Notes: a model not told the origin generated them from the sequence alone. DNA of 64,000 nt from Patescibacteria group bacterium (GCA_041667185.1 JBAYFM010000003.1:16962-80961); one strand, 5' to 3'. Numbered from the stretch's first letter, positions 5,030 through 16,701 are shown. Translations and numbers: made by a program.

Positions 5030-7156
5030 ATGGCTAAGATCTCCGTTAAGTCGTTTTTTTCCGCCATCCTGGGAGGACTGGCCTCTTTGGTCGTCCCGAA
5101 AACTCCGCGCGGCCGCGTCCGTCAGGCAGTTGTTTTCGTGTTACTGCTCATGGTCGTCGCCGGCAACCTCAGCCACCCCAAGTATTGGGATGACGCCGCT
5201 GATTGGGTGAACGGCAAGACGGGGATGAAGATCCCGCATTTCTGGAACGTGCCTTACCGCCTCGGACTTGATCTGCAGGGCGGCGCCCATCTCGTCTACA
5301 CGGCCGATGTCCGCAATATCGCGGAATCTGAAAAGCCGGACGCGATGTCGGGCGTGCGCGACGTCATCGAGCGCCGCGTGAACGCTTTCGGCATCTCCGA
5401 ACCGGTCGTCCAGACCAATAAGTCCGGCAGCGACTGGCGCGTGACCGTCGATCTGGCCGGCGTCAAGGATATCAGCGAGGCGATCAAACTCATCGGCGAG
5501 ACGCCGATCCTGGAGTTCAAGGAAGAGAACACTGATCCGCCGCGGGCGCTGACCGCCGACGAACAGAAACAGCTCGCTGATTTCAACGCCGCCGTGACCC
5601 TGCGGTCCAGGGAGGTTTTGGCCAAGGCTGTGAAAGCGGGCGCTGACTTCGGCGCGCTCGCCGCTGAATATTCCGATGACGCCGCGACCAAGGACAAAGG
5701 CGGCGATCTCGGTTTCGTCAGCTCCCAGGGCGAGTTCGCCGCCGCGATCGACAAGATCGTGGCCAAGAGACTGAAGCCTGGAGCGGTGCTCGCCGAGACC
5801 GTTAGCGATGACGCCGCCATCCGCATCGTCAAGTACGTCGCCAATCAGGAGGCTGGCAAAGAAGTCCGGGCCCAGCACATCCTGATCAGCTGGCAGGGAG
5901 CCGAGCGCAGCGAACAGACGCGCACCAAAGAGCAGGCTCAGGCGCTCATCGCCAACCTGGCTTCGCGCGCCACGGCCGCCAATTTCGGCAGCCTGGCCAA
6001 GAGCAATTCCGATGACGCCGGCAGCGCCGCTTCGAACGGCGACCTCGGCTGGTTCGGCGCCGGCGCCATGGTCAAGCCTTTCGAGGACGCCGTTTTCGCC
6101 CTGGAAAAGGGCGGTATCTCGGCCGTCGTCGAGAGCCCCTTCGGTTTCCATCTCATCCGCAAGACCGACGAGCGGCCGCTCTACGAGTATCAGCTCGCCC
6201 AGATCCTGTTCACGAAGAAGACCTCGGCCGACATCCTGCCGCCGGCTTCGCCTTGGAAGAACACCGAGCTTTCCGGCAAGGACCTGAAGTCCTCCTCGCT
6301 GCAGTTCAGCCCGCAGACCGGCGAGCCGCAGGTCGGTTTGGAGTTCAATGATAACGGCAAGAAATTGTTCGCGGAGATCACCCAGCGCAACGTCGGCAAG
6401 CCCGTGGCGATCTTCCTCGATAACCAGCCGCTCTCGGTGCCGACGGTCAACGAGCCGATCCTCGATGGCAGCGCGGTCATCACCGGCAAGTTCACGATCC
6501 AGGAGGCTAAGCTGTTGTCCCGCCGCCTGAACGCCGGCGCCCTGCCAGTCCCGATCACTCTCGAAAGCCAGTCCACGGTCGGCGCCTCGCTCGGCAAGGA
6601 TTCGCTCGACAAGAGCCTGTTCGCCGGGATCATCGGCTTCCTGATCATCGCGGCTTTCATGCTGCTGTATTACCGGCTGCCGGGCATCGTCGCCATCGTG
6701 GCGCTGCTGCTCTACACCGGCATCAACCTGGCGCTTTACAAACTCATCCCGGTCACGCTGACGCTCTCGGGCATCGCCGGTTTCATCCTGTCCATCGGCA
6801 TGGCTGTCGACGCCAACGTCCTGATCTTCGAGCGCACGAAAGAAGAGCTGAAACGCGGCCGCACTCTCGGCTCGGCCATCGACGAGGGCTTCAAGCGCGC
6901 CTGGCTGTCCATCCGCGACTCGAACTTCACCACGCTCATCTCCTGCACCATCCTGTTCTACACGAGCTCCAGCCTGATCAAGGGTTTCGCCCTGACGCTC
7001 GGACTCGGCGTCGTCGTGTCCTTGTTCTCCGCCATCACCGTGAGCCGCACCTTGCTGCGCCTGGTCTCCGGTTGGCGCGTATTCCACAATTCCTGGTTCT
7101 ACATGCCGGGCCTCAACCGCGCGCCGGCCGTGTCTAAATCGGACGACGAAGCCTAA
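5030..7156 (+). CDS. secD: Protein translocase subunit SecD with inserted parvulin-type PPIase-like domains
   Basis: N-terminal TM plus P1 base (LDLQGGAHLVY...TPILEFKEE). C-terminal SecD membrane core (GIIGFLIIAAFMLLYYR..., GIAGFILSIGMAVDANVLIFER). An internal segment carries the parvulin signature GDLGWFGAGAMVKPFEDAVFALEKGGISAVVESPFGFHLI and an upstream degenerate copy (GADFGALAAEYSDD...GGDLGFV). Confidence 0.9.
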   Translation: MAKISVKSFFSAILGGLASLVVPKTPRGRVRQAVVFVLLLMVVAGNLSHPKYWDDAADWVNGKTGMKIPHFWNVPYRLGLDLQGGAHLVYTADVRNIAESEKPDAMSGVRDVIERRVNAFGISEPVVQTNKSGSDWRVTVDLAGVKDISEAIKLIGETPILEFKEENTDPPRALTADEQKQLADFNAAVTLRSREVLAKAVKAGADFGALAAEYSDDAATKDKGGDLGFVSSQGEFAAAIDKIVAKRLKPGAVLAETVSDDAAIRIVKYVANQEAGKEVRAQHILISWQGAERSEQTRTKEQAQALIANLASRATAANFGSLAKSNSDDAGSAASNGDLGWFGAGAMVKPFEDAVFALEKGGISAVVESPFGFHLIRKTDERPLYEYQLAQILFTKKTSADILPPASPWKNTELSGKDLKSSSLQFSPQTGEPQVGLEFNDNGKKLFAEITQRNVGKPVAIFLDNQPLSVPTVNEPILDGSAVITGKFTIQEAKLLSRRLNAGALPVPITLESQSTVGASLGKDSLDKSLFAGIIGFLIIAAFMLLYYRLPGIVAIVALLLYTGINLALYKLIPVTLTLSGIAGFILSIGMAVDANVLIFERTKEELKRGRTLGSAIDEGFKRAWLSIRDSNFTTLISCTILFYTSSSLIKGFALTLGLGVVVSLFSAITVSRTLLRLVSGWRVFHNSWFYMPGLNRAPAVSKSDDEA

Positions 7157-8089: not shown

Positions 8090-8119
8090 GCCGCCAGACA
8101 CGTGTCTGGCGGCTTTTTG
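8090..8119 (+). terminator. Rho-independent terminator after secF
   Basis: Perfect palindrome GCCGCCAGACAcgTGTCTGGCGGC followed by TTTTT. Confidence 0.7.
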
Positions 8120-8182: not shown

Positions 8183-8512
8183 ATGAGAATGCTGGAACGC
8201 GGCAAAAGCCAGTCAACGGTAGTTCTTTTCTCGGATGACGACAGCAGGAATCCTCATGCTGATTCGCTGGACTGCGAATGGTGCGACTCGAAGCTCGAGG
8301 TCACCATCGATGATATCCAGCTGGCCGAGGTCCCTACTGACAACGGGAACGCCGTTCCCTGGCTTTTCGTGGAGTGCGGCAATTGCCACAGGCCAGTTGT
8401 CATTTGCGACGACAAGCTGCCTCAAGAACTGCTCGTGGAGACCTACATCCTCATTCTGTACCGCCTCGACTGCCCCGGCCGTCGGCTCGTTCTTCGCGGT
8501 TCGGCCCCCTGA
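8183..8512 (+). CDS. Small Cys-containing hypothetical protein (CEWC...CGNC, possible zinc finger)
   Basis: Strong SD (aggaggtgaacgATG). A TTGACG-17-TAAGAT promoter-like sequence lies upstream (~8128-8156). Own terminator. Confidence 0.5.
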   Translation: MRMLERGKSQSTVVLFSDDDSRNPHADSLDCEWCDSKLEVTIDDIQLAEVPTDNGNAVPWLFVECGNCHRPVVICDDKLPQELLVETYILILYRLDCPGRRLVLRGSAP

Positions 8513-8531
8513 TCTTCAGGGGGCTTTTTTT
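8505..8531 (+). terminator. Rho-independent terminator
   Basis: CCCCCTG-atctt-CAGGGGG followed by CTTTTTTTG. Overlaps the stop codon of the preceding gene. Confidence 0.65.
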
Positions 8532-8581: not shown

Positions 8582-8610
8582 TTGAAATTCAGCTTAAAAT
8601 AGGCTATGAT
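8582..8610 (+). promoter_or_regulatory. Sigma70-like promoter candidate (TTGAAA-17-TATGAT) upstream of the 8668 operon
   Basis: TTGAAA at 8582-8587, 17-nt spacer, TATGAT at 8605-8610. AT-rich context. Confidence 0.45.
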
Positions 8611-8650
8611 TAATTTAGGCTGGCAGTAGCGTGATTTTTTGTGCCAGACC

Positions 8651-8666
8651 AAGCTTAATTAAGCTT
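8651..8666 (+). promoter_or_regulatory. Perfect 16-bp palindrome AAGCTTAATTAAGCTT immediately 5' of the operon start codon (candidate operator or RBS-occluding hairpin)
   Basis: Seen directly. Ends 1 nt before the ATG at 8668. Confidence 0.5.
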
Positions 8667-8667
8667 C

Positions 8668-10086
8668 ATGCCCACGATAACCATTAATTTCGATTATTTC
8701 CTTCAGCTGGGAAGCCTGCCTTTGCCGCTCATGTTAGCGCGTCTTTTTTTGGACGGCGGCTGGATCTTCATTCTCGTCATTTTCGTCCAGTTCGGCTGGA
8801 TCATGTGGGTGCAGTCGCGTCAGGTCAAGTTCAACAAAGGCGTCAGATACATCCTGCTCGCGATCGACGTGCCGAAAGAGAACGAGCAGACGCCGAAGGC
8901 CGTCGAACAGATCTTCAGCCAGCTCGCCGGCGCCTATTCCGGAGCGGACAATTATGAGAAGTACTGGATCGGCAAGACCCAGTCCGTCTTCAGTTTCGAG
9001 CTGGTGTCGGTCGATGGTTACGTCCAATTCCTCGTGCATACTCCGGCCAAGTTCCGCGACCTGATCGAAGCGGCCGTCTACGCGCAGTATCCTGACGCCG
9101 AGATCATCGAGGTCGAGGATTACGCTGATAAAGTGCCGCTCAAATATCCGGATGACGAATGGGATTGTTGGGGCACGGAGTTCGCCCTGAAGAAGCCGGC
9201 GGCTTTTCCGATCCGGACGCACCTGCAGTTCGAGCACAATCTTTCGGAAGAATATTTCAAGGATCCGCTCGGTCCGATGCTTGAGATCTTCAGCTCGATG
9301 AAAAAAGGCGAGCAGTTGTGGCTGCAGTACATCATCATGCCCTGCGATGATTCCTGGAAGGATGCGAGCGCGGCCATCGCCGATAAGATCCTTGGCCGGA
9401 AAAAACCGGCGCCGAAGACGCTCGCCGATGATCTGGTCGCCTGGCCGCTCGCGGTCGTGAACGAGGTTGCTGGTTTGGGCGGTTCAGCGCCGTCGGAAAA
9501 GAAGGACGCTACGCCGAAGATGCTGCAGCTTTCGCCCGGCGAAAGGAACGTTCTCGAGACCATCCAGCTCAAAGCGGCGAAACATGGTTTTCTGACCAAG
9601 ATCCGCATGGTTTATGTGGCCAAGAAAACGATCGCCAACCGCGGCAAGGTCGTCTCGCCCATGAAAGGCGCTTTCGGCCAATTCGCGGCGCTGGATTCTA
9701 ATGCCATCAAGGTCTACGGCAAGGTCGCGCCGAAAGGGGATTACTTCTGGGAGAAATGGAGCGTGCCAGAGAAGACCAACAACATCATCCGCAACTACAA
9801 GAATCGCAGCGGTCGCGGCGGCAATTTCTTCGTGCTGAACGTCGAGGAGCTGGCGACTCTTTATCATTTCCCGTACAAGACCGTGAAGGCGCCGCTCATC
9901 AAGCGCACTGAGGCGAAGCGCGCCGAGCCGCCGTCGCATCTGCCGACGGCCGACATCGATGCAATCAGGCCTTTCAAGCGCAAGAAAGCGGCTCCGCCGC
10001 CGTCGCATTTGCCGGCCCCGCCGCCGGAACCTGAGGACGCCGAGGGCGACGCCGGCGACGACGGCGATGACTTGCTCAAGATCTGA
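8668..10086 (+). CDS. Membrane-anchored hypothetical protein (2 N-terminal TM helices plus ~400-aa soluble domain and a Pro-rich C-terminus), first gene of a 5-gene operon
   Basis: N-terminus LPLPLMLARLFLDGGWIFILVIFVQFGWIMWV is hydrophobic. The remainder is soluble with a PPSHLP x2 Pro-rich end. A 5-nt gap separates it from the next gene. Confidence 0.6.
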   Translation: MPTITINFDYFLQLGSLPLPLMLARLFLDGGWIFILVIFVQFGWIMWVQSRQVKFNKGVRYILLAIDVPKENEQTPKAVEQIFSQLAGAYSGADNYEKYWIGKTQSVFSFELVSVDGYVQFLVHTPAKFRDLIEAAVYAQYPDAEIIEVEDYADKVPLKYPDDEWDCWGTEFALKKPAAFPIRTHLQFEHNLSEEYFKDPLGPMLEIFSSMKKGEQLWLQYIIMPCDDSWKDASAAIADKILGRKKPAPKTLADDLVAWPLAVVNEVAGLGGSAPSEKKDATPKMLQLSPGERNVLETIQLKAAKHGFLTKIRMVYVAKKTIANRGKVVSPMKGAFGQFAALDSNAIKVYGKVAPKGDYFWEKWSVPEKTNNIIRNYKNRSGRGGNFFVLNVEELATLYHFPYKTVKAPLIKRTEAKRAEPPSHLPTADIDAIRPFKRKKAAPPPSHLPAPPPEPEDAEGDAGDDGDDLLKI

Positions 10087-10091
10087 CGCCT

Positions 10092-12503
10092 ATGCCGGAA
10101 CTCACGCCCTACGATCACGATCATGAGAACGAAGTCTCGCTTTTCGCGGAGACCAACTATCGGAATAACCGGACCAAGTTCGGCATCAAGACCGATGACC
10201 GCCGCCGGCATGTTTACGTCATCGGTAAGACCGGCATGGGCAAGACCACGCTGCTCGAGAATTTCGTCCTGAACGACATCTACGCCGGGCATGGTCTCGC
10301 TTACGTCGATCCGCACGGCGACACCGCCCAGAAACTGCTGGACTACATTCCCTCGAACCGCATCAACGACGTGGTGTATTTCAATCCGGGGGATATGGAT
10401 TTTCCCATCGGGTTCAACATTCTCGAGACCGTCGACCCGAGCAAGAAACACCTGGTCGCCGCCGGGCTCATGGGTGTCTTCAAGAAGATCTGGCCCGACG
10501 TCTGGTCGGCCCGTATGGAGTACATCCTGCTCAACACCATCCTCGCGCTTCTCGACGCGCCGGGTTCGACATTGCTCGGCATCAACCGCCTGCTCGTGGA
10601 CGAGGATTATCGCAAGCGCGTCGTCTCGCTCTGTCAGGACCCGGTCGTGAAGACTTTCTGGGTCAAGGAGTTCGCCGCTTTTTCGGAGAAGTACCGCACC
10701 GAGGCTATCGCGCCGGTCCAGAACAAGGTCGGCCAGTTCCTGTCCGCGTCCATCATCCGCAATATCGTCGCTCAGGTGAAATCGACCATCGATGTCCGCG
10801 AGATCATGGACAAGCGTAAGATCTTCATCCTGAATCTGGCCAAGGGCCTCATCGGCGAGGAAAACTCGCGGCTCTTGGGCGGTATGATCGTGACGCGGTT
10901 GCAGCTCGCGGCCATGGAGCGCGTGGATATGCCGGAGAAAGAGCGGCAGGATTTCTACCTCTACGTCGACGAGTTCCAGAATTTCGCCACGACTTCGTTC
11001 GCGAACATTTTGTCCGAGGCGCGCAAGTACCGCCTGAACCTGATCGTCGCCCACCAGTACATCGAACAGCTCGAGGAGGAGGTCCGTGACGCCATCTTCG
11101 GCAACGTCGGCACCATCATCAGTTTCCGGGTCGGCGCCGCCGACGCCCAGTTCATGGAGACCGAGTTCACGCCGCGATTCACACCGGAGGACCTGGTCAA
11201 TCTCGGCAAGTACGATACGTATCTGAAGCTCATGATCGACGGCGCATCCTCCGAGCCTTTCTCGGCGACGACCTTGCCGCCGATCGCTCAACGGACTGGT
11301 TCGGCGGAAAAAGTGATCAAGGTCTCGCGTGAACGGAACGCGCGTCCGCGAGCCGATATCGAGAGCAAGGTTTTGCGCTGGAGCGGTATGGGGACGTCCG
11401 ACGAGGGTGCCGTGATCGATGTTGAGGATGATGATGAGGCTTTGGCTTCCGAAGAAAAGCTCAAGGAATTACAGGCCACGTCGCCCAAGATCGCGGGATT
11501 GGTCGTGCCGGACAAGAAACCGAAGAAGATGTTCGAGATCGCGTGCTCAGTCTGCGGCAAGATCCAGCAATTATCGTTCGAACCCGACTGGTCGCGGCCG
11601 TGGTTTTGCAAGGAAGATCTGGAGAAGCGGAAATTGTCCGGTGAAGGCGATCGTCCAGCCGCATCCGCAACTCCCGTTGCTGTTGCAGCTCCACGACCGC
11701 CAGCCGTCCAACCGCCGAAGATAATCGTGGTTCCGCCGCGCCCGCCGGTTGCCGCCAAACCATTGCAAGCGGCTCCACCGCCCAAGAAGATCGAGCCGCA
11801 GGCTGCCGCCCCAGCCGCTCCGAGCGTTTCGTTAGCGGCATTGCTGGGCAAAGATTTGACGGCTAAAGAAGAAATGGAGGTCATTGAAGAAGTTGATGAT
11901 GAGGACGCCGGCGACGGAACCGGATCGCCGAAGATCGTCGAAAAGATCGTCGAGACGCCGCTCGCCTCCGCGACTCCGGGAGGCGTCGGTCTGGTGAGCG
12001 TCAGCGCCAAATCGGTCGATCGTCCGAAACCGCGCGCCGTCGCCACGCCAGTTGCGCCCAGACCGGCAGCGAAGCCGGCTCCGATCGCCCCCAATTCTAC
12101 CCGCTCGGCTGCGCCCAGACCGGCCGCTCCGAATCGCGAGAAGAATAAACCGAATCGTCCGCGCATCGTCATGTCTGATCCGAAGCGCCAGTTCGCGGCT
12201 CCGAAAGCGAATATTCAGGTCAATCCGCGCGAGCCTGAACGCCATTCGGATAAGTCGGCGGCTGATGTCGTCAAGCCATCTGTTTCGGTTCAGCCAGTCG
12301 TCGAACAGAAGAAACCCCAATCGATTATCCGACCGCCGGCCGCGGCGAGCAGCGAATCGAAGATCGGTGCCGCGCCGCAAGCACCGGCTCCGATCCAGCC
12401 AGCCGCGCCGACAACTCCTAAACCGGCTGTGCCGCCGCCGGCCGTGAAATCCGATTCCGACGGCCAGCCGATGCGTCCTGGGGAAGTAATTAAATTTTCA
12501 TGA
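10092..12503 (+). CDS. VirD4/TraG/TraD-like (type IV coupling protein family, AAA_10-like) P-loop ATPase with a long disordered Pro/Ala-rich C-terminal tail
   Basis: Walker A VIGKTGMGKTT. Walker B-like FYLYVDEFQNF (the D-E-F is typical of the TraG/VirD4 family). No TM helix of its own. Residues ~420-803 are low-complexity (PAAS/PKKIEPQAAAPAAP...), with a CSVCGK...WFC Cys cluster embedded in them. Confidence 0.7.
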   Translation: MPELTPYDHDHENEVSLFAETNYRNNRTKFGIKTDDRRRHVYVIGKTGMGKTTLLENFVLNDIYAGHGLAYVDPHGDTAQKLLDYIPSNRINDVVYFNPGDMDFPIGFNILETVDPSKKHLVAAGLMGVFKKIWPDVWSARMEYILLNTILALLDAPGSTLLGINRLLVDEDYRKRVVSLCQDPVVKTFWVKEFAAFSEKYRTEAIAPVQNKVGQFLSASIIRNIVAQVKSTIDVREIMDKRKIFILNLAKGLIGEENSRLLGGMIVTRLQLAAMERVDMPEKERQDFYLYVDEFQNFATTSFANILSEARKYRLNLIVAHQYIEQLEEEVRDAIFGNVGTIISFRVGAADAQFMETEFTPRFTPEDLVNLGKYDTYLKLMIDGASSEPFSATTLPPIAQRTGSAEKVIKVSRERNARPRADIESKVLRWSGMGTSDEGAVIDVEDDDEALASEEKLKELQATSPKIAGLVVPDKKPKKMFEIACSVCGKIQQLSFEPDWSRPWFCKEDLEKRKLSGEGDRPAASATPVAVAAPRPPAVQPPKIIVVPPRPPVAAKPLQAAPPPKKIEPQAAAPAAPSVSLAALLGKDLTAKEEMEVIEEVDDEDAGDGTGSPKIVEKIVETPLASATPGGVGLVSVSAKSVDRPKPRAVATPVAPRPAAKPAPIAPNSTRSAAPRPAAPNREKNKPNRPRIVMSDPKRQFAAPKANIQVNPREPERHSDKSAADVVKPSVSVQPVVEQKKPQSIIRPPAAASSESKIGAAPQAPAPIQPAAPTTPKPAVPPPAVKSDSDGQPMRPGEVIKFS

Positions 12504-13486
12504 GCCAGTCCTGTCCTCCTTGTGTTCCGCCGGTAAAATACGAACGGCGTCGTTTGTTGATTTTCATGTTGGGCGTAAGTTGCGCCATCTTCAGTGGTAT
12601 TTTGCTTTGGCGCGGGGAAATTGACCGGCAGTACACTATTGATCGCCAGCAAGCTGAACAATATCTCACTGACCGCCAGACCTTGTTGGAGAAGCGGATC
12701 CGGAAAGTCGAATCGCGGAATGCTGACAATATTTTTTCCCTGGAGGAACAGATCAAGCGTCTGGCTGAAAAGCAGAAAACCACAGCTCCCGTTGCCAGCG
12801 TTTCGGATACCGCGGGCCTTAATTTTTCCATGGAGGATGCCATAGCCTCGATCGTCGAACTGGTCTGCATCGACAATGTTGACCGAGAGGTCTACTACAC
12901 CGGTTCTGGCACAGTAGTCGATCGCAGCGGACTAATTGTCACTAATGAACATATCCTCAAGAGCGGCGACGGATCGTTGATCGGTTTTTGCGGCGTCGGT
13001 TTTACGCGCGATTTGCATAAGCCTCCGCAGATTGAATTTGTGGCCACGACCGCAGCGATCCATAAATCGGCCGACCTCGCCATTATGCGCATCAGCGAAC
13101 GTCTCGATGGTCAGGATTTGCCGGCTAGATTTCAGGCTGTTTCGTTGGCTGATTCCGCCGCCACCTCGCTTGATCTCGCTCTTGGCGACGCCATCTTCAT
13201 CGGCGGTTATCCCGGGGTCGGCGCGGATACTTTTACTTTCACCCAAGGGGTCGTGAGCGGCCGGGTTGGAGAAGATCTCATCAAAACCTCGGCTTTCATC
13301 GATACGGGCACGTCGGGCGGCGCGGCTTTCGACTCGAAGGGTTTATATGTCGGCATGCCGATGGCTGCGGCCAGGGGCGATATCGGCGGCAGCTTGGGTT
13401 ATCTCATCGGAGCTGACATCATCGATGATTTCATGAAAGATTATTATTCCGGTTTGAACCATCTGCCGGAAACGCTTCCAGAATGA
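12500..13486 (+). CDS. Membrane-anchored trypsin-like (S1/DegP-type) serine protease
   Basis: ATGA overlap with the upstream ATPase. N-terminal TM (LLIFMLGVSCAIFSGILLW) plus a coiled-coil. Catalytic triad context TNEHIL (His), DLAIMRI (Asp), GTSGGA (Ser). Confidence 0.65.
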   Translation: MSQSCPPCVPPVKYERRRLLIFMLGVSCAIFSGILLWRGEIDRQYTIDRQQAEQYLTDRQTLLEKRIRKVESRNADNIFSLEEQIKRLAEKQKTTAPVASVSDTAGLNFSMEDAIASIVELVCIDNVDREVYYTGSGTVVDRSGLIVTNEHILKSGDGSLIGFCGVGFTRDLHKPPQIEFVATTAAIHKSADLAIMRISERLDGQDLPARFQAVSLADSAATSLDLALGDAIFIGGYPGVGADTFTFTQGVVSGRVGEDLIKTSAFIDTGTSGGAAFDSKGLYVGMPMAAARGDIGGSLGYLIGADIIDDFMKDYYSGLNHLPETLPE

Positions 13487-14169
13487 GGTCTGTCAGCCAA
13501 GAGATCGTGATCGAGACATCCGACGGTATCTTGCTTTCGGGTTCATATTCAGCCGGTCCGCTCGGAGGTCCGGCGGCGCTTTTGCTGCATATGATGCCGG
13601 CGACCAAGGAAAGCTGGGCGGAGTTCGCCGCTGTCCTGGCGGCGCGCGGATTTTCGACGCTCGCGATCGATCTGCGCGGCCATGGCCGCAGCACGCGCGG
13701 CGCGGACGGACGAAAGCTAGATTATAAATTATTCGAGGATACCGATCACCAGGCCAAGATCATCGACGTCGAAGCTGCGGCGGCCTGGCTCGAGCGCGAG
13801 CGGGGGATCGGGAAAAGCCGGCTTGTGGTTGTCGGCGCTTCGATCGGGGCGAACCTGGCCATCGCTTTCGCTGCCGCTCATCCGGAGATCCCGGCCGCAG
13901 CGGCGTTGTCGCCCGGACTTGATTACCGCGGTGTCACGACCCCGGACCAGGTCCGCAGATTCGGCCTGGCGCAGGGCTTGTTCCTGGCGGCGAGCGTGGA
14001 GGATGAACTGTCTTTCAAGACCGACTGCGAACTCGCGCGGCTCAAACCCGACGCGGTCATCAGGGAATATCAGGGAGCCGGCCACGGTACGGCGATGTTC
14101 TCGTCCCGGCCGGAGCTGGCCGGCGAACTCGCGGCTTGGCTGGCAAACCGCGCCGCTCCGAAGCCGTGA
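13483..14169 (+). CDS. Alpha/beta-fold hydrolase (dienelactone hydrolase/esterase-like)
   Basis: ATGA overlap with the protease. Nucleophile elbow VVGASIGAN (GxSxG). Confidence 0.6.
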   Translation: MRSVSQEIVIETSDGILLSGSYSAGPLGGPAALLLHMMPATKESWAEFAAVLAARGFSTLAIDLRGHGRSTRGADGRKLDYKLFEDTDHQAKIIDVEAAAAWLERERGIGKSRLVVVGASIGANLAIAFAAAHPEIPAAAALSPGLDYRGVTTPDQVRRFGLAQGLFLAASVEDELSFKTDCELARLKPDAVIREYQGAGHGTAMFSSRPELAGELAAWLANRAAPKP

Positions 14170-14171
14170 TG

Positions 14172-15224
14172 ATTATGGAAGGTTTTTTGAGGGTGCAGAC
14201 GGGCGGGTCACCGCGGGATATGGGTCATGACATCGGCGCCGCCTCGCGCGACATCATCCGCGAATTGGTCGCCACGGACCGCGCTTTTTATCGCCGCCTG
14301 ACCGGCCGTTCTCTTGAGGCCCTGCGGCGCATTTTTTTCCGGGACCAGCTGCCGCTCATCGCGCGTCGCTATCCGGACTACGCGGCTGAACTCGCGGGGA
14401 TCGCCGAGGGCGCGCGTCTGCCTTTCGAGAAGATCGCGCTTTTTTCCGCCGAGGAAGACCTGATTGACGCGTGCGGCGGCTGGGAAAAATGCACCAGCGC
14501 CGCCGTGCGGACTCCGACCGGCGTCTATCTTTTGCATAACGAAGATTACATCGGCCGCTATCACGGTCGGTTGATCGTGATCGAGGCCGAACCCGAACGT
14601 CAGCCGGCTTTCGTCAGTTTGGCCTATCCGGGAACGCTGGCCGGCTCAGCCTGCGGACTCAACTCCCGGCAGATCGCTTTCGAGGGCAATTCTTTGCGTT
14701 TTCCGGTGCGCCGTTGCGGCTTGCCGAAGAATTTTCTCCTGCGCGATCTGCTGGCGGCCCGCAGCCTCGCGGATGCCGTCGCGAAGTTCTCGGTTGGCCC
14801 GCGCATCCTCGCGAGCAGCGCGACGCTGGTCGCCGGGCGCAGCCGGCGGATCGTCTGCGTGGAAGCGGTGCCAGACCGCGTGGCCGTCATCCGGCCGGAC
14901 CGCCGTGACGTCTGGGCGCACACCAATCACGTGCGTTCCCTGGAGATCGATACCCGCGACGAACGAGCGACCCTGAGTTCGCGATTGCGCCTGGCGGAGA
15001 TCGAAGCCGCTCTGTCCGACCGGGCCAGCCGTGGTCTCAGCGGTTTCCGCGAAGTGCTGTCGGCTCCGGACCGGCGCTACCTTTATTTCGGCCGATCCGC
15101 GGCTGAACCGACGACTCTGGCTTCGGTAATCATGGATCCGGCGCGGCTGGAAATGCAGATCGCTAAACGCGACGGGAAAAGGCGGAAATTCATCAGCTAT
15201 TCAGTCCCGCGGGCGCATTCCTAG
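14172..15224 (+). CDS. C45-family Ntn hydrolase (acyl-CoA:6-APA acyltransferase-like / peptidase C45)
   Basis: GGWEKCTSAAV (Gly-Cys autoprocessing/nucleophile site), ...YLLHNEDY..., ...HTNH.... ORF opens at 14136 overlapping the upstream gene, and the start could be 14136/14166/14172. Confidence 0.5.
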   Translation: MMEGFLRVQTGGSPRDMGHDIGAASRDIIRELVATDRAFYRRLTGRSLEALRRIFFRDQLPLIARRYPDYAAELAGIAEGARLPFEKIALFSAEEDLIDACGGWEKCTSAAVRTPTGVYLLHNEDYIGRYHGRLIVIEAEPERQPAFVSLAYPGTLAGSACGLNSRQIAFEGNSLRFPVRRCGLPKNFLLRDLLAARSLADAVAKFSVGPRILASSATLVAGRSRRIVCVEAVPDRVAVIRPDRRDVWAHTNHVRSLEIDTRDERATLSSRLRLAEIEAALSDRASRGLSGFREVLSAPDRRYLYFGRSAAEPTTLASVIMDPARLEMQIAKRDGKRRKFISYSVPRAHS

Positions 15225-15313: not shown

Positions 15314-16030
15314 ATGAGCCGCACCCAGACATTTGAGCGCCAGGCGCAGGAGCTGCTCCGGCGTTTCGACCCCGCGTCCGAACGCAAGCGGCTGCTCGAT
15401 CGCCCGTTCATGTTGGAGCTCTTCGGAACCCCCAAGTCCGGCAAGAGCACGATGAGGGAGATGATCAAGCATTTCTTCAAACGCAACGGTTGGTCGGTAT
15501 CGTCGCCGCTCGAAGGCGCCGAGGCCGTCGAACTGCCGCGCGCCGAGCCGCAGTACAACTTTCAGACCGCGGAGTATGCGCTGTCGAACGCCCGAGAACG
15601 CTTCTACAACAAGCGGTTCCATCTGGTCATCTTCGACCGGGCCATCTATGACGGCGTGACCCGTATGGAGCTGTACCGCCGCAAGGGTATCATCACCGCG
15701 GAGCAGCAGGCCCTGATCGAGGGCTACTACCTGTTGCCCTGGAACGCCGGGATGTTCGATATGCACATCTGTCTCGTCGCCGACGTGGAGACCGCCATCA
15801 AGCGCGAGCTGGCCCGGGCGCTCACCAAGAAACACGGCGAGACGATGAATCCGCAGACGCTCAGCGATCTTCTGGCCGCCCACCAGTCCATGTGGGACCG
15901 TCTCGGCTGCGCCGCAAACCCGGCCATGTGCTGGCATGATTCCTCCAAGGAGCGCGAAGCGGAGACCGCCAAAGCGATCCTGGAAAACCTGTTCGCGGCG
16001 TTCGAACGCCGCCTGCAGCAGTCCCGCTGA
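15314..16030 (+). CDS. P-loop kinase, deoxynucleoside-kinase-like
   Basis: SD ggaggtgaaaaATG. Walker A GTPKSGKST. The FDRAIYDG segment resembles the dNK ERS(V/I)YSD motif. Confidence 0.55.
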   Translation: MSRTQTFERQAQELLRRFDPASERKRLLDRPFMLELFGTPKSGKSTMREMIKHFFKRNGWSVSSPLEGAEAVELPRAEPQYNFQTAEYALSNARERFYNKRFHLVIFDRAIYDGVTRMELYRRKGIITAEQQALIEGYYLLPWNAGMFDMHICLVADVETAIKRELARALTKKHGETMNPQTLSDLLAAHQSMWDRLGCAANPAMCWHDSSKEREAETAKAILENLFAAFERRLQQSR

Positions 16031-16042
16031 TCCGTCTTTTAG

Positions 16043-16070
16043 CCGTCGAGCTGAGCTCGACGGTTTTTCT
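16043..16070 (+). terminator. Rho-independent terminator
   Basis: CCGTCGAGC-tga-GCTCGACGG followed by TTTTTCTT. Confidence 0.65.
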
Positions 16071-16140: not shown

Positions 16141-16701
16141 ATGGAATTGCCCATCGGCATCGATCTCGACGGCACCATCATCGACCATACCGCCAACAAA
16201 CAGCGGCTGGCCGCGGACTTGGGTTATCGGTTGACGTCCTGCGAGACGAATTCCAATATCATGAGCCGGTTCATGTCGGAGCGGCATTACGAGGAGCTGC
16301 AAGAGCGTCTATATAAGGAAATGACGCTTGAGGCTCCGCCGGTCCGGGGCGCGCTCGAGGTCTTGAGCCGACTCGGCCGCCCATTCTTCCTGATCTCGGC
16401 GCGGCGGCCGGAAACTATCCCGTTCGCCCAGGCTTGGATCGACAAGTGGTTGGTCCGCGACATCCTGCCGCCGGAGCGGACGATCTTCTGCGGCAGCGGC
16501 GCCGAGAAGCGGGGACACTGCGATCGTCTCGGCGTCGGCCTGTATCTGGACGACAAGGTCGGCGTGCTGCAGAAATTGTCGTCCGGCGTGGCCAAGGTCT
16601 GGTTCGACGAACACGGTCTGGCCGATGCTTTGTCGCCGACGGCGGATATCAAGATCGTCCGCACGTGGGTGGAATTCGGCGAGCTGCTGCGGCGCGGTTG
16701 A
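16141..16701 (+). CDS. HAD-superfamily phosphatase (5'-nucleotidase-like)
   Basis: N-terminal HAD motif I IGIDLDGTI (DxDGT). Size ~186 aa, consistent with the NT5C-type nucleotidase fold. Confidence 0.55.
   Translation: MELPIGIDLDGTIIDHTANKQRLAADLGYRLTSCETNSNIMSRFMSERHYEELQERLYKEMTLEAPPVRGALEVLSRLGRPFFLISARRPETIPFAQAWIDKWLVRDILPPERTIFCGSGAEKRGHCDRLGVGLYLDDKVGVLQKLSSGVAKVWFDEHGLADALSPTADIKIVRTWVEFGELLRRG

Follow-up and report, generated by a model that had tools for sequence, protein, structure and literature searches.

Patescibacteria account for much of bacterial diversity, and almost every member has genes for VirD4-like ATPases that lie away from T4SS genes. A published survey (PMC12102498) found VirD4-like (T4CP) homologues in 2,918 of 3,035 Patescibacteria genomes and VirB4 in fewer, 2,417; about 80% of genomes have T4SS genes, t4cp often lies far from virB4, and only 148 of the 5,713 T4CP homologues of the phylum are found near virB4. 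In Southlakia, the T4SS is essential while the t4cp homologue, which is not necessarily an orthologue of the ATPase described below, is non-essential (PMC12102498). Orphan VirD4-like genes in Patescibacteria were known before this analysis, and published work on these ATPases could only point to a possible re-use for another role.

We analysed an ATPase of this type in a 64,000-nt stretch of DNA from a Patescibacteria group bacterium (the window), where it is encoded by the second gene of a co-directional run of five (8668-15224, + strand), directly after a gene for a DUF8128 protein. With moderate confidence, we take the functional unit to be the two-gene module at 8668-12503, likely a DNA translocase, with genes 3-5 recruited to it rather than being parts of the machine. 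The initial annotation had found no match to any canonical conjugation, competence or defence system; the parts are not without known kin, since the ATPase type is already counted as a T4CP homologue (PMC12102498) and the anchor belongs to a Pfam family, DUF8128.

Four described systems resemble parts of this locus. Like the T4CPs (TrwB of R388, VirD4, DotL), the ATPase has a helical insertion in the nucleotide-binding domain and the domains TrwB_AAD_bind and TraG-D_C, and it aligns with TrwB at an hhalign probability of 93.6% over 257 columns. Unlike them, it has no N-terminal transmembrane domain in its polypeptide and no relaxase or T4SS neighbourhood. It has an additional zinc ribbon and a long, basic tail rich in Pro and Ala, and its gene is chromosomal, found almost throughout the phylum and very well conserved. 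The second comparison is with VirB4 (TrwK of R388) and the split TrsD-TrsE of pGO1: as in trsD-trsE, an N-terminal-domain gene is followed by a motor gene, and it is the product of gene 1, rather than the ATPase, that has the VirB4 N-terminal domain fold. However, no virB3, virB6 or virB8 lies nearby, the anchor has its own transmembrane helix, hhalign detected no sequence similarity of DUF8128 to TrwK or to pGO1 TrsD, and the hhalign alignment of the ATPase to the VirB4 proteins TrwK and TrsE is confined to the P-loop region.

CedD is essential for DNA import by the crenarchaeal Ced system (PMC11868833). CedD and CedB share with our pair the order of transmembrane segment, VirB4-like N-terminal domain and FtsK-HerA-superfamily ATPase, and they too are chromosomal with no tie to a mobile element. 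In CedD the three parts form one polypeptide, whereas in the window they are spread across two genes; the NCBIfam CedD model reaches 23 bits against a cut-off of 600, in the P-loop region only, and no CedA-like channel or pilin genes adjoin the pair. The fourth likeness is to the DptH/DndH C-terminal domain and to PADLOC mad8, the latter giving the best single profile score for the ATPase (64.6 bits over residues 35-378). The other components of Dnd, Dpt and MADS are absent, and six other proteins tested gave no system-level PADLOC matches. We rejected a defence-island reading: only mad8 matched, and the ATPase is distributed and conserved like a core gene.

The gene cluster and its transcription signals

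The features of the region are listed below, in window coordinates.

8503-8525 (+): terminator-like hairpin, 10-bp stem then TTTTTTT; closes the small ORF upstream and shields the cluster from secDF
8582-8610 (+): sigma-70-like promoter, TTGAAA-17-TATGAT, the region's best, matching 10 of 12 positions; predicted to serve the DUF8128-ATPase unit
8668-10086 (+): gene 1, DUF8128 (PF26449) membrane anchor, 472 aa (precomputed Pfam, hydropathy, AF2, Foldseek)
10092-12503 (+): gene 2, transmembrane-less VirD4/TrwB-class ATPase, 803 aa (Pfam TrwB_AAD_bind, TraG-D_C, zf_Tbcl_2; hhalign; hydropathy)
10092-11396 (+): motor of gene 2, residues 1-435, then an acidic linker
11523-11627 (+): zinc ribbon of gene 2, CxxC-x17-CxxC type, residues 478-512 (zf_Tbcl_2)
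Residues 513-803 of gene 2 (+): basic, disordered tail, Pro/Ala/Lys-rich, pI 10 (region composition)
12500-13486 (+): gene 3, membrane-anchored trypsin-like serine protease, 328 aa (Trypsin_2, 68 bits)
13483-14169 (+): gene 4, alpha/beta hydrolase, 228 aa (Abhydrolase_1, Hydrolase_4, DLH)
14169-15224 (+): gene 5, C45-family autoproteolytic acyltransferase/hydrolase proenzyme, about 351 aa (NCBIfam NF040521, Pfam AAT)
15314-16030 (+): gene 6, 238-aa P-loop protein with GTPKSGKST and its own Shine-Dalgarno sequence
16041-16065 (+): intrinsic-terminator-like hairpin, 11-bp stem then a T-run; first strong one downstream of the cluster, 3' of gene 6

The layout agrees with the initial annotation: five same-strand genes follow the promoter-like site at 8582, with junctions, in order, of a 5-nt gap, ATGA, ATGA and GTGATG. 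In four related loci (L005, L006, L007, L009), inspection by eye showed a similar element of the type TTGAAA/TTGATT-N17-TAnnnT some 55-60 nt before the start of DUF8128. A second terminator-like hairpin lies at 8090, and together with the one at 8503 it closes the upstream units. A 109-aa ORF (8183-8512) was considered as a member of the unit and rejected: none of the 82 related genome loci has it, and terminators flank it. Spacing of 10 nt or less is found in 16 of the 46 same-strand neighbour pairs of the window, functionally unrelated pairs included, so the tight spacing is not special to this cluster.

The 30 window ORFs scanned include no relaxase or mating-pair-formation gene and no virB3/virB6/virB8-type gene; in the 23 that were scanned besides those of the cluster, no T4SS, relaxase or pilin domain was found, in line with what had been noted at the outset. 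Those of the 23 that match Pfam are housekeeping genes.

The DUF8128 anchor and the ATPase

Gene 1 has a single long hydrophobic stretch (residues 22-48), predicted to be an N-terminal transmembrane helix. In the AF2 model (pLDDT 81.3, pTM 0.76), residues 58-400 or so form a cytoplasmic domain, and a Foldseek search with this model returned TrwK chains as all of the top 13 matches, at global TM-scores of only about 0.3. The fold of DUF8128 is, as modelled, VirB4 N-terminal-domain-like; the evidence for this call is structural only and comes from one AF2 model. The C-terminal peptide is invariant at K407, E420-P421-P422 and P426, in a segment modelled as disordered. PF26449 is assigned in precomputed Pfam to the identical protein P0001 and to nearly all homologues; a scan of 44 family members against a local copy of Pfam gave no match at E up to 10, and the DUF8128 profile had 0 matches among PDB sequences. 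A profile search for DUF8128-ATPase fusions in 1.84 billion representative proteins yielded 3,174 family clusters, of which the best 150 are all stand-alone proteins of 396-691 aa. Our literature search found no paper on 'DUF8128', and neither the fold nor the DUF8128-ATPase pairing had been described earlier in the literature searched.

The Walker motifs of the ATPase are intact (Walker A GKTGMGKT at residue 45, YLYVDEFQNF at residue 289), and the protein shows no transmembrane segment, with 0 windows of 19 residues at a hydropathy of at least 1.6. Its homologues start with the same conserved soluble N-terminus. The earlier description of an ATPase with Walker A and a DEF-type Walker B motif but without a membrane segment is thus accurate. 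Profile comparison, which had been proposed as a check, placed the protein in the VirD4/TrwB class: PF10412 (TrwB_AAD_bind) scores 32.7 bits against a cut-off of 20.5, TraG-D_C is also above its Pfam cut-off, and phmmer against the PDB matches TrwB and DotL. In the structure model, residues 116-240 or so form an all-helical insertion flanked by strands 94-97 and 244-248, and the TrwB alignment covers this region. Scores stay far below the family cut-offs for NCBIfam TraD (41.6 bits, cut-off 366), CD1115 VirD4-like (38.5, cut-off 250) and TIGR00929 VirB4_CagE (16.5, cut-off 643). Within the FtsK-HerA superfamily the ATPase belongs to the VirB4/VirD4 branch, and its nearest relatives by sequence are the coupling proteins TrwB and VirD4. 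The zinc-ribbon residues C485, C488 and C506 are invariant across 42 homologues. An exact-sequence contig look-up for the ATPase returned no record.

Given the VirB4 N-terminal-domain-like fold of the anchor, the pair resembles a hybrid of VirB4 and VirD4 that is split into two chains, and DUF8128 and the ATPase therefore map to complementary halves of VirB4. This description refines the initial proposal of a split coupling protein.

Conservation of the pair, with its proposed substrate and mechanism

We examined 82 related genome loci and counted adjacency in the 72 with enough sequence. In 60 of them the ATPase is the next gene after DUF8128, in the same orientation, and DUF8128 is directly upstream in 41 of 52 metagenomic ATPase loci, while one gene occurs without the other nearby in about 17-20% of loci. 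In some genomes the DUF8128 gene is found beside glycosyltransferase genes instead. DUF8128 and the ATPase are thus a conserved unit, spread across hundreds of Patescibacteria, and the 472-aa protein, already credited with supplying the transmembrane segment, is a conserved partner of the motor. Synteny in related genomes had been proposed as a check on all five genes; genes 1 and 2 are conserved together, but genes 3-5 are not beyond a few relatives. That a large fraction of the motors have a dedicated anchor with a VirB4-like fold gives these orphan ATPases a concrete two-protein machine.

Median identity to the window proteins is 65% for the motor, 42% for DUF8128, 51% for SecD and 50% for MnmA. 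The motor is more conserved than SecD or MnmA by this measure, consistent with a core chromosomal function. The best 120 ATPase homologues listed are at least 72% identical, and their names, where a function is given, are of T4SS/T4CP type or refer to a CxxC domain, with one exception that is an evident misannotation. Outside the closest relatives, the slot after the ATPase is taken by variable, unrelated housekeeping genes, and nucleoside/nucleotide salvage genes stand 3' of it in 14 loci. On the other side, DUF8128 is preceded at a short distance by secD-secF in about 40 of 60 loci, drawn from several candidate phyla; a sigma-like gene often stands in between.

In the mechanism we propose, DUF8128 would be held in the cytoplasmic membrane by its one N-terminal helix, with the VirB4-like domain facing the cytoplasm. 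We infer that it docks the motor at the membrane, perhaps through the invariant C-terminal peptide and the invariant N-terminal strands of the motor. A need for an anchor in trans is supported by the sequence of the ATPase, which has no transmembrane segment, and by three loci without DUF8128 (L116, L118, L129), where a homologous single-transmembrane ORF of 79-87 aa abuts the ATPase in its place. Like its relatives, the motor would assemble into a ring, and ATP would drive the movement or hand-over of a polymer at the membrane. The pair would serve Patescibacteria as a chromosomally encoded housekeeping translocase, by itself or in trans with a T4SS whose genes lie elsewhere.

DptH, TrwB, HerA and FtsK, all relatives of the ATPase, act on DNA; DotL, also a close relative, moves proteins. 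By analogy, DNA is the most likely substrate and our best guess. The conserved zinc ribbon and the pI 10 tail are hints in this direction, as are the salvage genes after the ATPase and, by analogy again, CedD, which has the same domain order and is needed for DNA import. A stronger version of this reading, which we put forward tentatively as a one-in-several possibility, is that the pair is a self-contained, phylum-wide DNA translocase without a T4SS cluster, a bacterial counterpart of CedB/CedD and an evolutionary intermediate between VirB4 and VirD4. If true, it would carry DNA across the membrane and might, for instance, supply nucleotide salvage in organisms unable to make nucleotides. The two-protein machine has a structural tie to the archaeal Ced DNA importer, and it bears on the divergence of VirB4 and VirD4.

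The most serious alternative, which we regard as possible but less likely, is that the pair is the coupling-protein/substrate-receptor module of the Patescibacteria T4SS, working in trans to deliver protein or DNA to host cells. The ATPase belongs to the T4CP family by sequence and fold, the anchor's VirB4-like fold could dock on the same inner-membrane complex, and both the prevalence of T4SS genes and the frequent distance of t4cp from virB4 (PMC12102498) speak for this alternative. Against it stand the very small number of homologues near virB4 and the contrast in Southlakia between an essential T4SS and a dispensable t4cp homologue. Since T4CP homologues are found in more genomes than VirB4, some genomes have a motor without a channel, which also counts against it, and coupling proteins, evolving as they do with their substrates, do not usually keep an identity of 60-90% across lineages.

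We give little credence to the idea that the pair is a non-translocating housekeeping factor of the membrane, for example in assembling envelope or Sec-dependent proteins or controlling their quality, with the adjacency to secDF reflecting function. The recurrence of secD-secF upstream across candidate phyla fits this idea, and VirB4 itself is mainly an assembly ATPase (PMC12102498). However, the pair is insulated from secDF in the window by two terminators and has a promoter apart from it, and elsewhere the sigma-like gene often intervenes. No Sec accessory factor is known to belong to this ATPase class.

Genes downstream of the ATPase

The enzymes encoded after the DNA-translocase candidate are those first proposed. 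Gene 3 has a transmembrane helix at residues 19-37 and the triad motifs TNEH(151), D(192)LAIM and GTS(272)GG. It scores 41.6 bits against HtrA/DegP TIGR02037, below the cut-off of 416, and NCBIfam and Pfam scans found no PDZ domain; its GC3 is 0.59, compared to 0.74-0.85 in the neighbouring genes. Gene 4 matches alpha/beta hydrolase families, and gene 5 matches NF040521 over its full length (176.9 bits, cut-off 85), although its start is ambiguous between 14166 (GTG), 14169 (ATG) and 14175 (ATG). By prediction, the protease domain is on the outer side of the membrane, and the two hydrolases have no export signal.

The protease follows the ATPase only in four loci from three relatives (L003, L004, L007, L008). 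A gene 4 homologue comes directly after the protease in the same four and occurs at varying positions in a few other loci; a gene 5 homologue was found only in L007 among the 82 related genome loci. The protease, alpha/beta hydrolase and C45 hydrolase are thus lineage-specific add-ons of close relatives, and in our model they would have joined the same transcript in one sub-lineage. The protease and hydrolase stay linked to the pair over a substantial divergence (DUF8128 is 47% identical in L008) and may have a functional tie to it within that sub-lineage.

A stoichiometric complex of all five products, as initially suggested from the overlaps, does not fit this distribution, the difference in compartments or the frequency of such overlaps in this genome. 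The related reading, that the five genes form one envelope translocation/processing or conflict system in which the ATPase exports a substrate and the protease and hydrolases process it, draws on four consecutive overlapping or near-overlapping junctions behind one promoter and on the protease-hydrolase linkage in the four loci. It is very improbable, and synteny largely refutes it already: the roughly 56 remaining genome loci with the pair showed no protease homologue behind the ATPase, the C45 gene recurs in one relative, the six other proteins tested include no further PADLOC defence component, the region is a housekeeping one, and near-universal, strongly conserved genes are the opposite of a patchy defence-island distribution. 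The false lead of a new five-gene system that includes the protease and hydrolases is thereby removed.

Gene 6 begins after an 89-nt gap, with GGAGGTG preceding its ATG, and is probably on the same transcript as the cluster. Searches of Pfam and PADLOC gave no family for its product. A homologue of the next ORF (16141-16701) accompanies the gene 6 homologue in L003, L004, L007, L010 and L013. We considered gene 6 as a member of the module and rejected it, since in L010 and L013 both genes lie upstream of DUF8128.

Layout of the five-gene cluster

The window lies on the chromosome of a metagenome-assembled genome from the Patescibacteria (CPR). The five ORFs reported in the initial annotation are present as described, joined in order by a 5-nt gap, ATGA, ATGA and GTGATG, and its domain calls for the ATPase, the protease and genes 4 and 5 match our domain searches. 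The first gene encodes a 472-aa protein, which is Pfam DUF8128 (PF26449); the anchor is already known as a Pfam DUF. This protein is 100% identical to the record 'hypothetical protein WCT10_01440 [Patescibacteria group bacterium]', and its close relatives are labelled Uhrbacteria. The cluster is bounded by the following signals:

8582-8610, promoter-like site TTGAAA-17-TATGAT
8090 and 8503, terminator-like hairpins separating the cluster from secDF and a small upstream ORF
16041, next strong terminator downstream, 3' of a sixth gene with a separate ribosome-binding site

The tight gene spacing is not distinctive: in the window, 16 of 46 neighbouring gene pairs that share a strand lie at most 10 nt apart. 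Among 23 further window ORFs scanned, those matching Pfam are housekeeping genes (aminoacyl-tRNA synthetases, FtsH, ClpB, Ddl, Alr, PBP and polysaccharide synthesis genes), and no T4SS, relaxase or pilin domains were found.

Conservation of the DUF8128-ATPase pair

A DUF8128-profile scan of species-representative genomes gave at least 589 matching stretches, and the best 80 of these loci carry several candidate-phylum names: Uhrbacteria, Kerfeldbacteria, Buchananbacteria, Komeilibacteria, Falkowbacteria, Kuenenbacteria and Paceibacter. Within the Parcubacteria-type lineages sampled for the pair, the ATPase lies directly 3' of DUF8128 on the same strand in 60 of the 72 genome loci with at least 1.5 kb of downstream sequence. 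In the reverse test, in which metagenomes were scanned with an ATPase profile, DUF8128 lay directly 5' of the ATPase in 41 of 52 loci; one partner occurs without the other in approximately 17-20% of loci.

The protease and alpha/beta hydrolase genes follow the ATPase only in four related loci (L003, L004, L007 and L008), and the C45 gene occurs among relatives only in L007. Since the pair recurs while the protease and hydrolases are limited to these few loci, the five-gene operon consists of two conserved core genes and of cargo confined to a single sub-lineage. Much of the novelty claimed in the initial annotation, namely the five-gene architecture, falls. Elsewhere, the gene following the ATPase encodes a nucleoside phosphorylase (7 loci), an IF-2B-family protein (5), UppP (5), thymidine kinase (2), a CarS-like protein (2), MnmA (2) or others.

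The motor is the slowest-evolving gene of the neighbourhood, with a median identity to the window of 65% (DUF8128 42%, SecD 51%, SecF 48%, MnmA 50%). The best 120 listed database homologues of the ATPase are all at least 72% identical to it. Their function-stating names are T4SS/T4CP-type labels, most commonly 'type IV secretion system DNA-binding domain-containing protein', or 'CxxC-x17-CxxC domain-containing protein'; the sole other function name, PhnG, looks like a misannotation.

DUF8128 without a following ATPase was seen in L023, L025, L039, L043, L051, L058, L060, L073 and L084. Most such loci share a similar downstream ORF series, which in L060 comprises a GT4 glycosyltransferase, DUF4012, a DUF11 surface-type protein and TGT. 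In 36 of 60 loci, including L014, L026 and L028, DUF8128 is directly preceded by a protein of roughly 370 aa that combines Sigma70_r4 and HARE-HTH domains. A protein with both domains also directly precedes it in the ATPase-less L060 (8765-9886); the window has no homologue.

The motor, its proposed anchor and their possible role

The ATPase matches TrwB_AAD_bind and TraG-D_C, has intact Walker motifs and contains no hydrophobic segment. Residues 478-512, unmentioned in the initial annotation, form a CxxC-x17-CxxC zinc ribbon, followed by a 290-residue Pro/Ala/Lys-rich tail with a pI of 10. The ribbon cysteines C485, C488 and C506 are invariant; the fourth ligand is Asp in the window genome (CKED; 11607-11618, residues 506-509), where the family consensus is CxxC. 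By hhalign, the motor aligns with TrwB, the R388 coupling protein, over 257 columns at 93.6% probability, and with TrwK, the R388 VirB4, and pGO1 TrsE at the P-loop region only, so that by sequence it falls on the VirD4/TrwB side.

DUF8128 shows no sequence link to solved structures or local Pfam families. A structural search with its AlphaFold model (pLDDT 81, pTM 0.76) gave no match to a RecA or P-loop ATPase, nor to 4ag5, a VirB4 structure of the C-terminal domain only. Independently, Foldseek places 13 TrwK chains at the top, with E values of 7e-5 to 4e-3. In the model the cytoplasmic domain is VirB4-like, and this membrane protein is encoded directly 5' of the motor in about 80% of loci. 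Positive residues follow the DUF8128 helix, and therefore the large domain should be cytoplasmic. The C-terminal peptide KAPL...EAKRAEPP is invariant and disordered. Our literature search returned no paper naming DUF8128, or describing its pairing with the ATPase or its VirB4-like fold.

In three metagenomic loci without DUF8128, homologous single-transmembrane ORFs of 79-87 aa, with the motif RWQ.IWS...LLI.VP..LGF.YLPP, abut the ATPase on its 5' side:

L116, 6724-6969, small single-transmembrane ORF
L118, 2484-2747, small single-transmembrane ORF
L129, 6035-6274, small single-transmembrane ORF

These loci are consistent with a motor relying on an adjacently encoded anchor; the small ORF may be an alternative anchor or part of a second paralogue. 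A precedent is pGO1 trsD-trsE, where one gene of the pair supplies the N-terminal domain of VirB4 and the other its motor (PMC12102498). DUF8128 has no sequence similarity to TrsD.

We propose that DUF8128 would tether the ATPase ring at the cytoplasmic face of the membrane, with the invariant peptide as a candidate docking motif, and that the ATP-driven ring would move or hand over a polymer. By analogy, we favour DNA as the probable substrate. DNA is what the majority of close relatives work on, a zinc ribbon and a basic tail would fit a nucleic-acid-binding role, and nucleotide-salvage genes recur just 3' of the pair. In addition, CedD, which Sulfolobales require for DNA import (PMC11868833), combines the same order of domains in a single chain.

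A plausible alternative is a coupling protein serving a patescibacterial T4SS in trans, as the family membership of the ATPase would allow. It is already published that nearly all Patescibacteria carry orphan VirD4-like genes (PMC12102498). Against the in-trans reading, the same study counts T4CP homologues in 2,918 of 3,035 genomes against VirB4 in 2,417, finds only 148 of 5,713 T4CP homologues near virB4, and reports the Southlakia t4cp homologue as non-essential where the T4SS is essential. The ATPase has the fold and domains of a coupling protein, but it has no same-chain transmembrane domain, does not show the genomic association and stays below the curated equivalog scores. For these reasons it is treated here as a motor that works in the manner of the VirB4/VirD4 class, and as neither a canonical T4CP nor a canonical VirB4.

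The position of secDF, just 5' of the pair in about 40 of 60 loci, hints at a Sec-related or assembly role. In the window, however, terminators stand between secDF and the pair, which is served by a promoter of its own with a motif that recurs in relatives. The five-gene translocation/processing or conflict system of the initial annotation is opposed by synteny, by compartment predictions and by the lack of other defence matches, the ATPase matching PADLOC mad8 at 64.6 bits with the other components absent.

Neighbouring genes

The protease encoded by gene 3 has a single transmembrane helix and a Trypsin_2 domain with residues His151, Asp192 and Ser272; gene 4 encodes an alpha/beta hydrolase, and gene 5 a C45 proenzyme. 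The protease gene (12500-13486) has a third-position GC of 0.59 against 0.74-0.85 in its neighbours, and its orthologues in relatives are 47-58% identical. The recurrent genes 3' of the pair, namely nucleoside phosphorylase (L033, L034, L038, L047, L052, L054, L068), the IF-2B-family, ribose-1,5-bisphosphate-isomerase-like gene (L021, L028, L031, L046, L075) and thymidine kinase (L061, L063), may reflect a link to nucleotide salvage or inherited gene order.

Upstream, a perfect 16-nt palindrome, AAGCTTAATTAAGCTT (8651-8666), stops one base 5' of the start codon of DUF8128, a gene with no obvious Shine-Dalgarno; the palindrome is not conserved in relatives. A 109-aa ORF (8183-8512) has a strong Shine-Dalgarno, two CxxC pairs and a terminator-like hairpin on either side; it matches no family and lacks homologues in all 82 related genome loci. 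Between SecD_1st and the P1 head, SecD (5030-7156) contains an insertion of parvulin-type peptidyl-prolyl isomerase (Rotamase) domains, an architecture shared by the L003 relative (61% identity).

Downstream, a 238-aa P-loop protein without a family match (15314-16030) lies just 5' of a 186-aa ORF (16141-16701) that has no Pfam match at E <= 1e-4 and whose L003 counterpart matches NT5C weakly. Homologues of both co-occur in L003, L004, L007, L010 and L013, and the two ORFs may form a separate small module.
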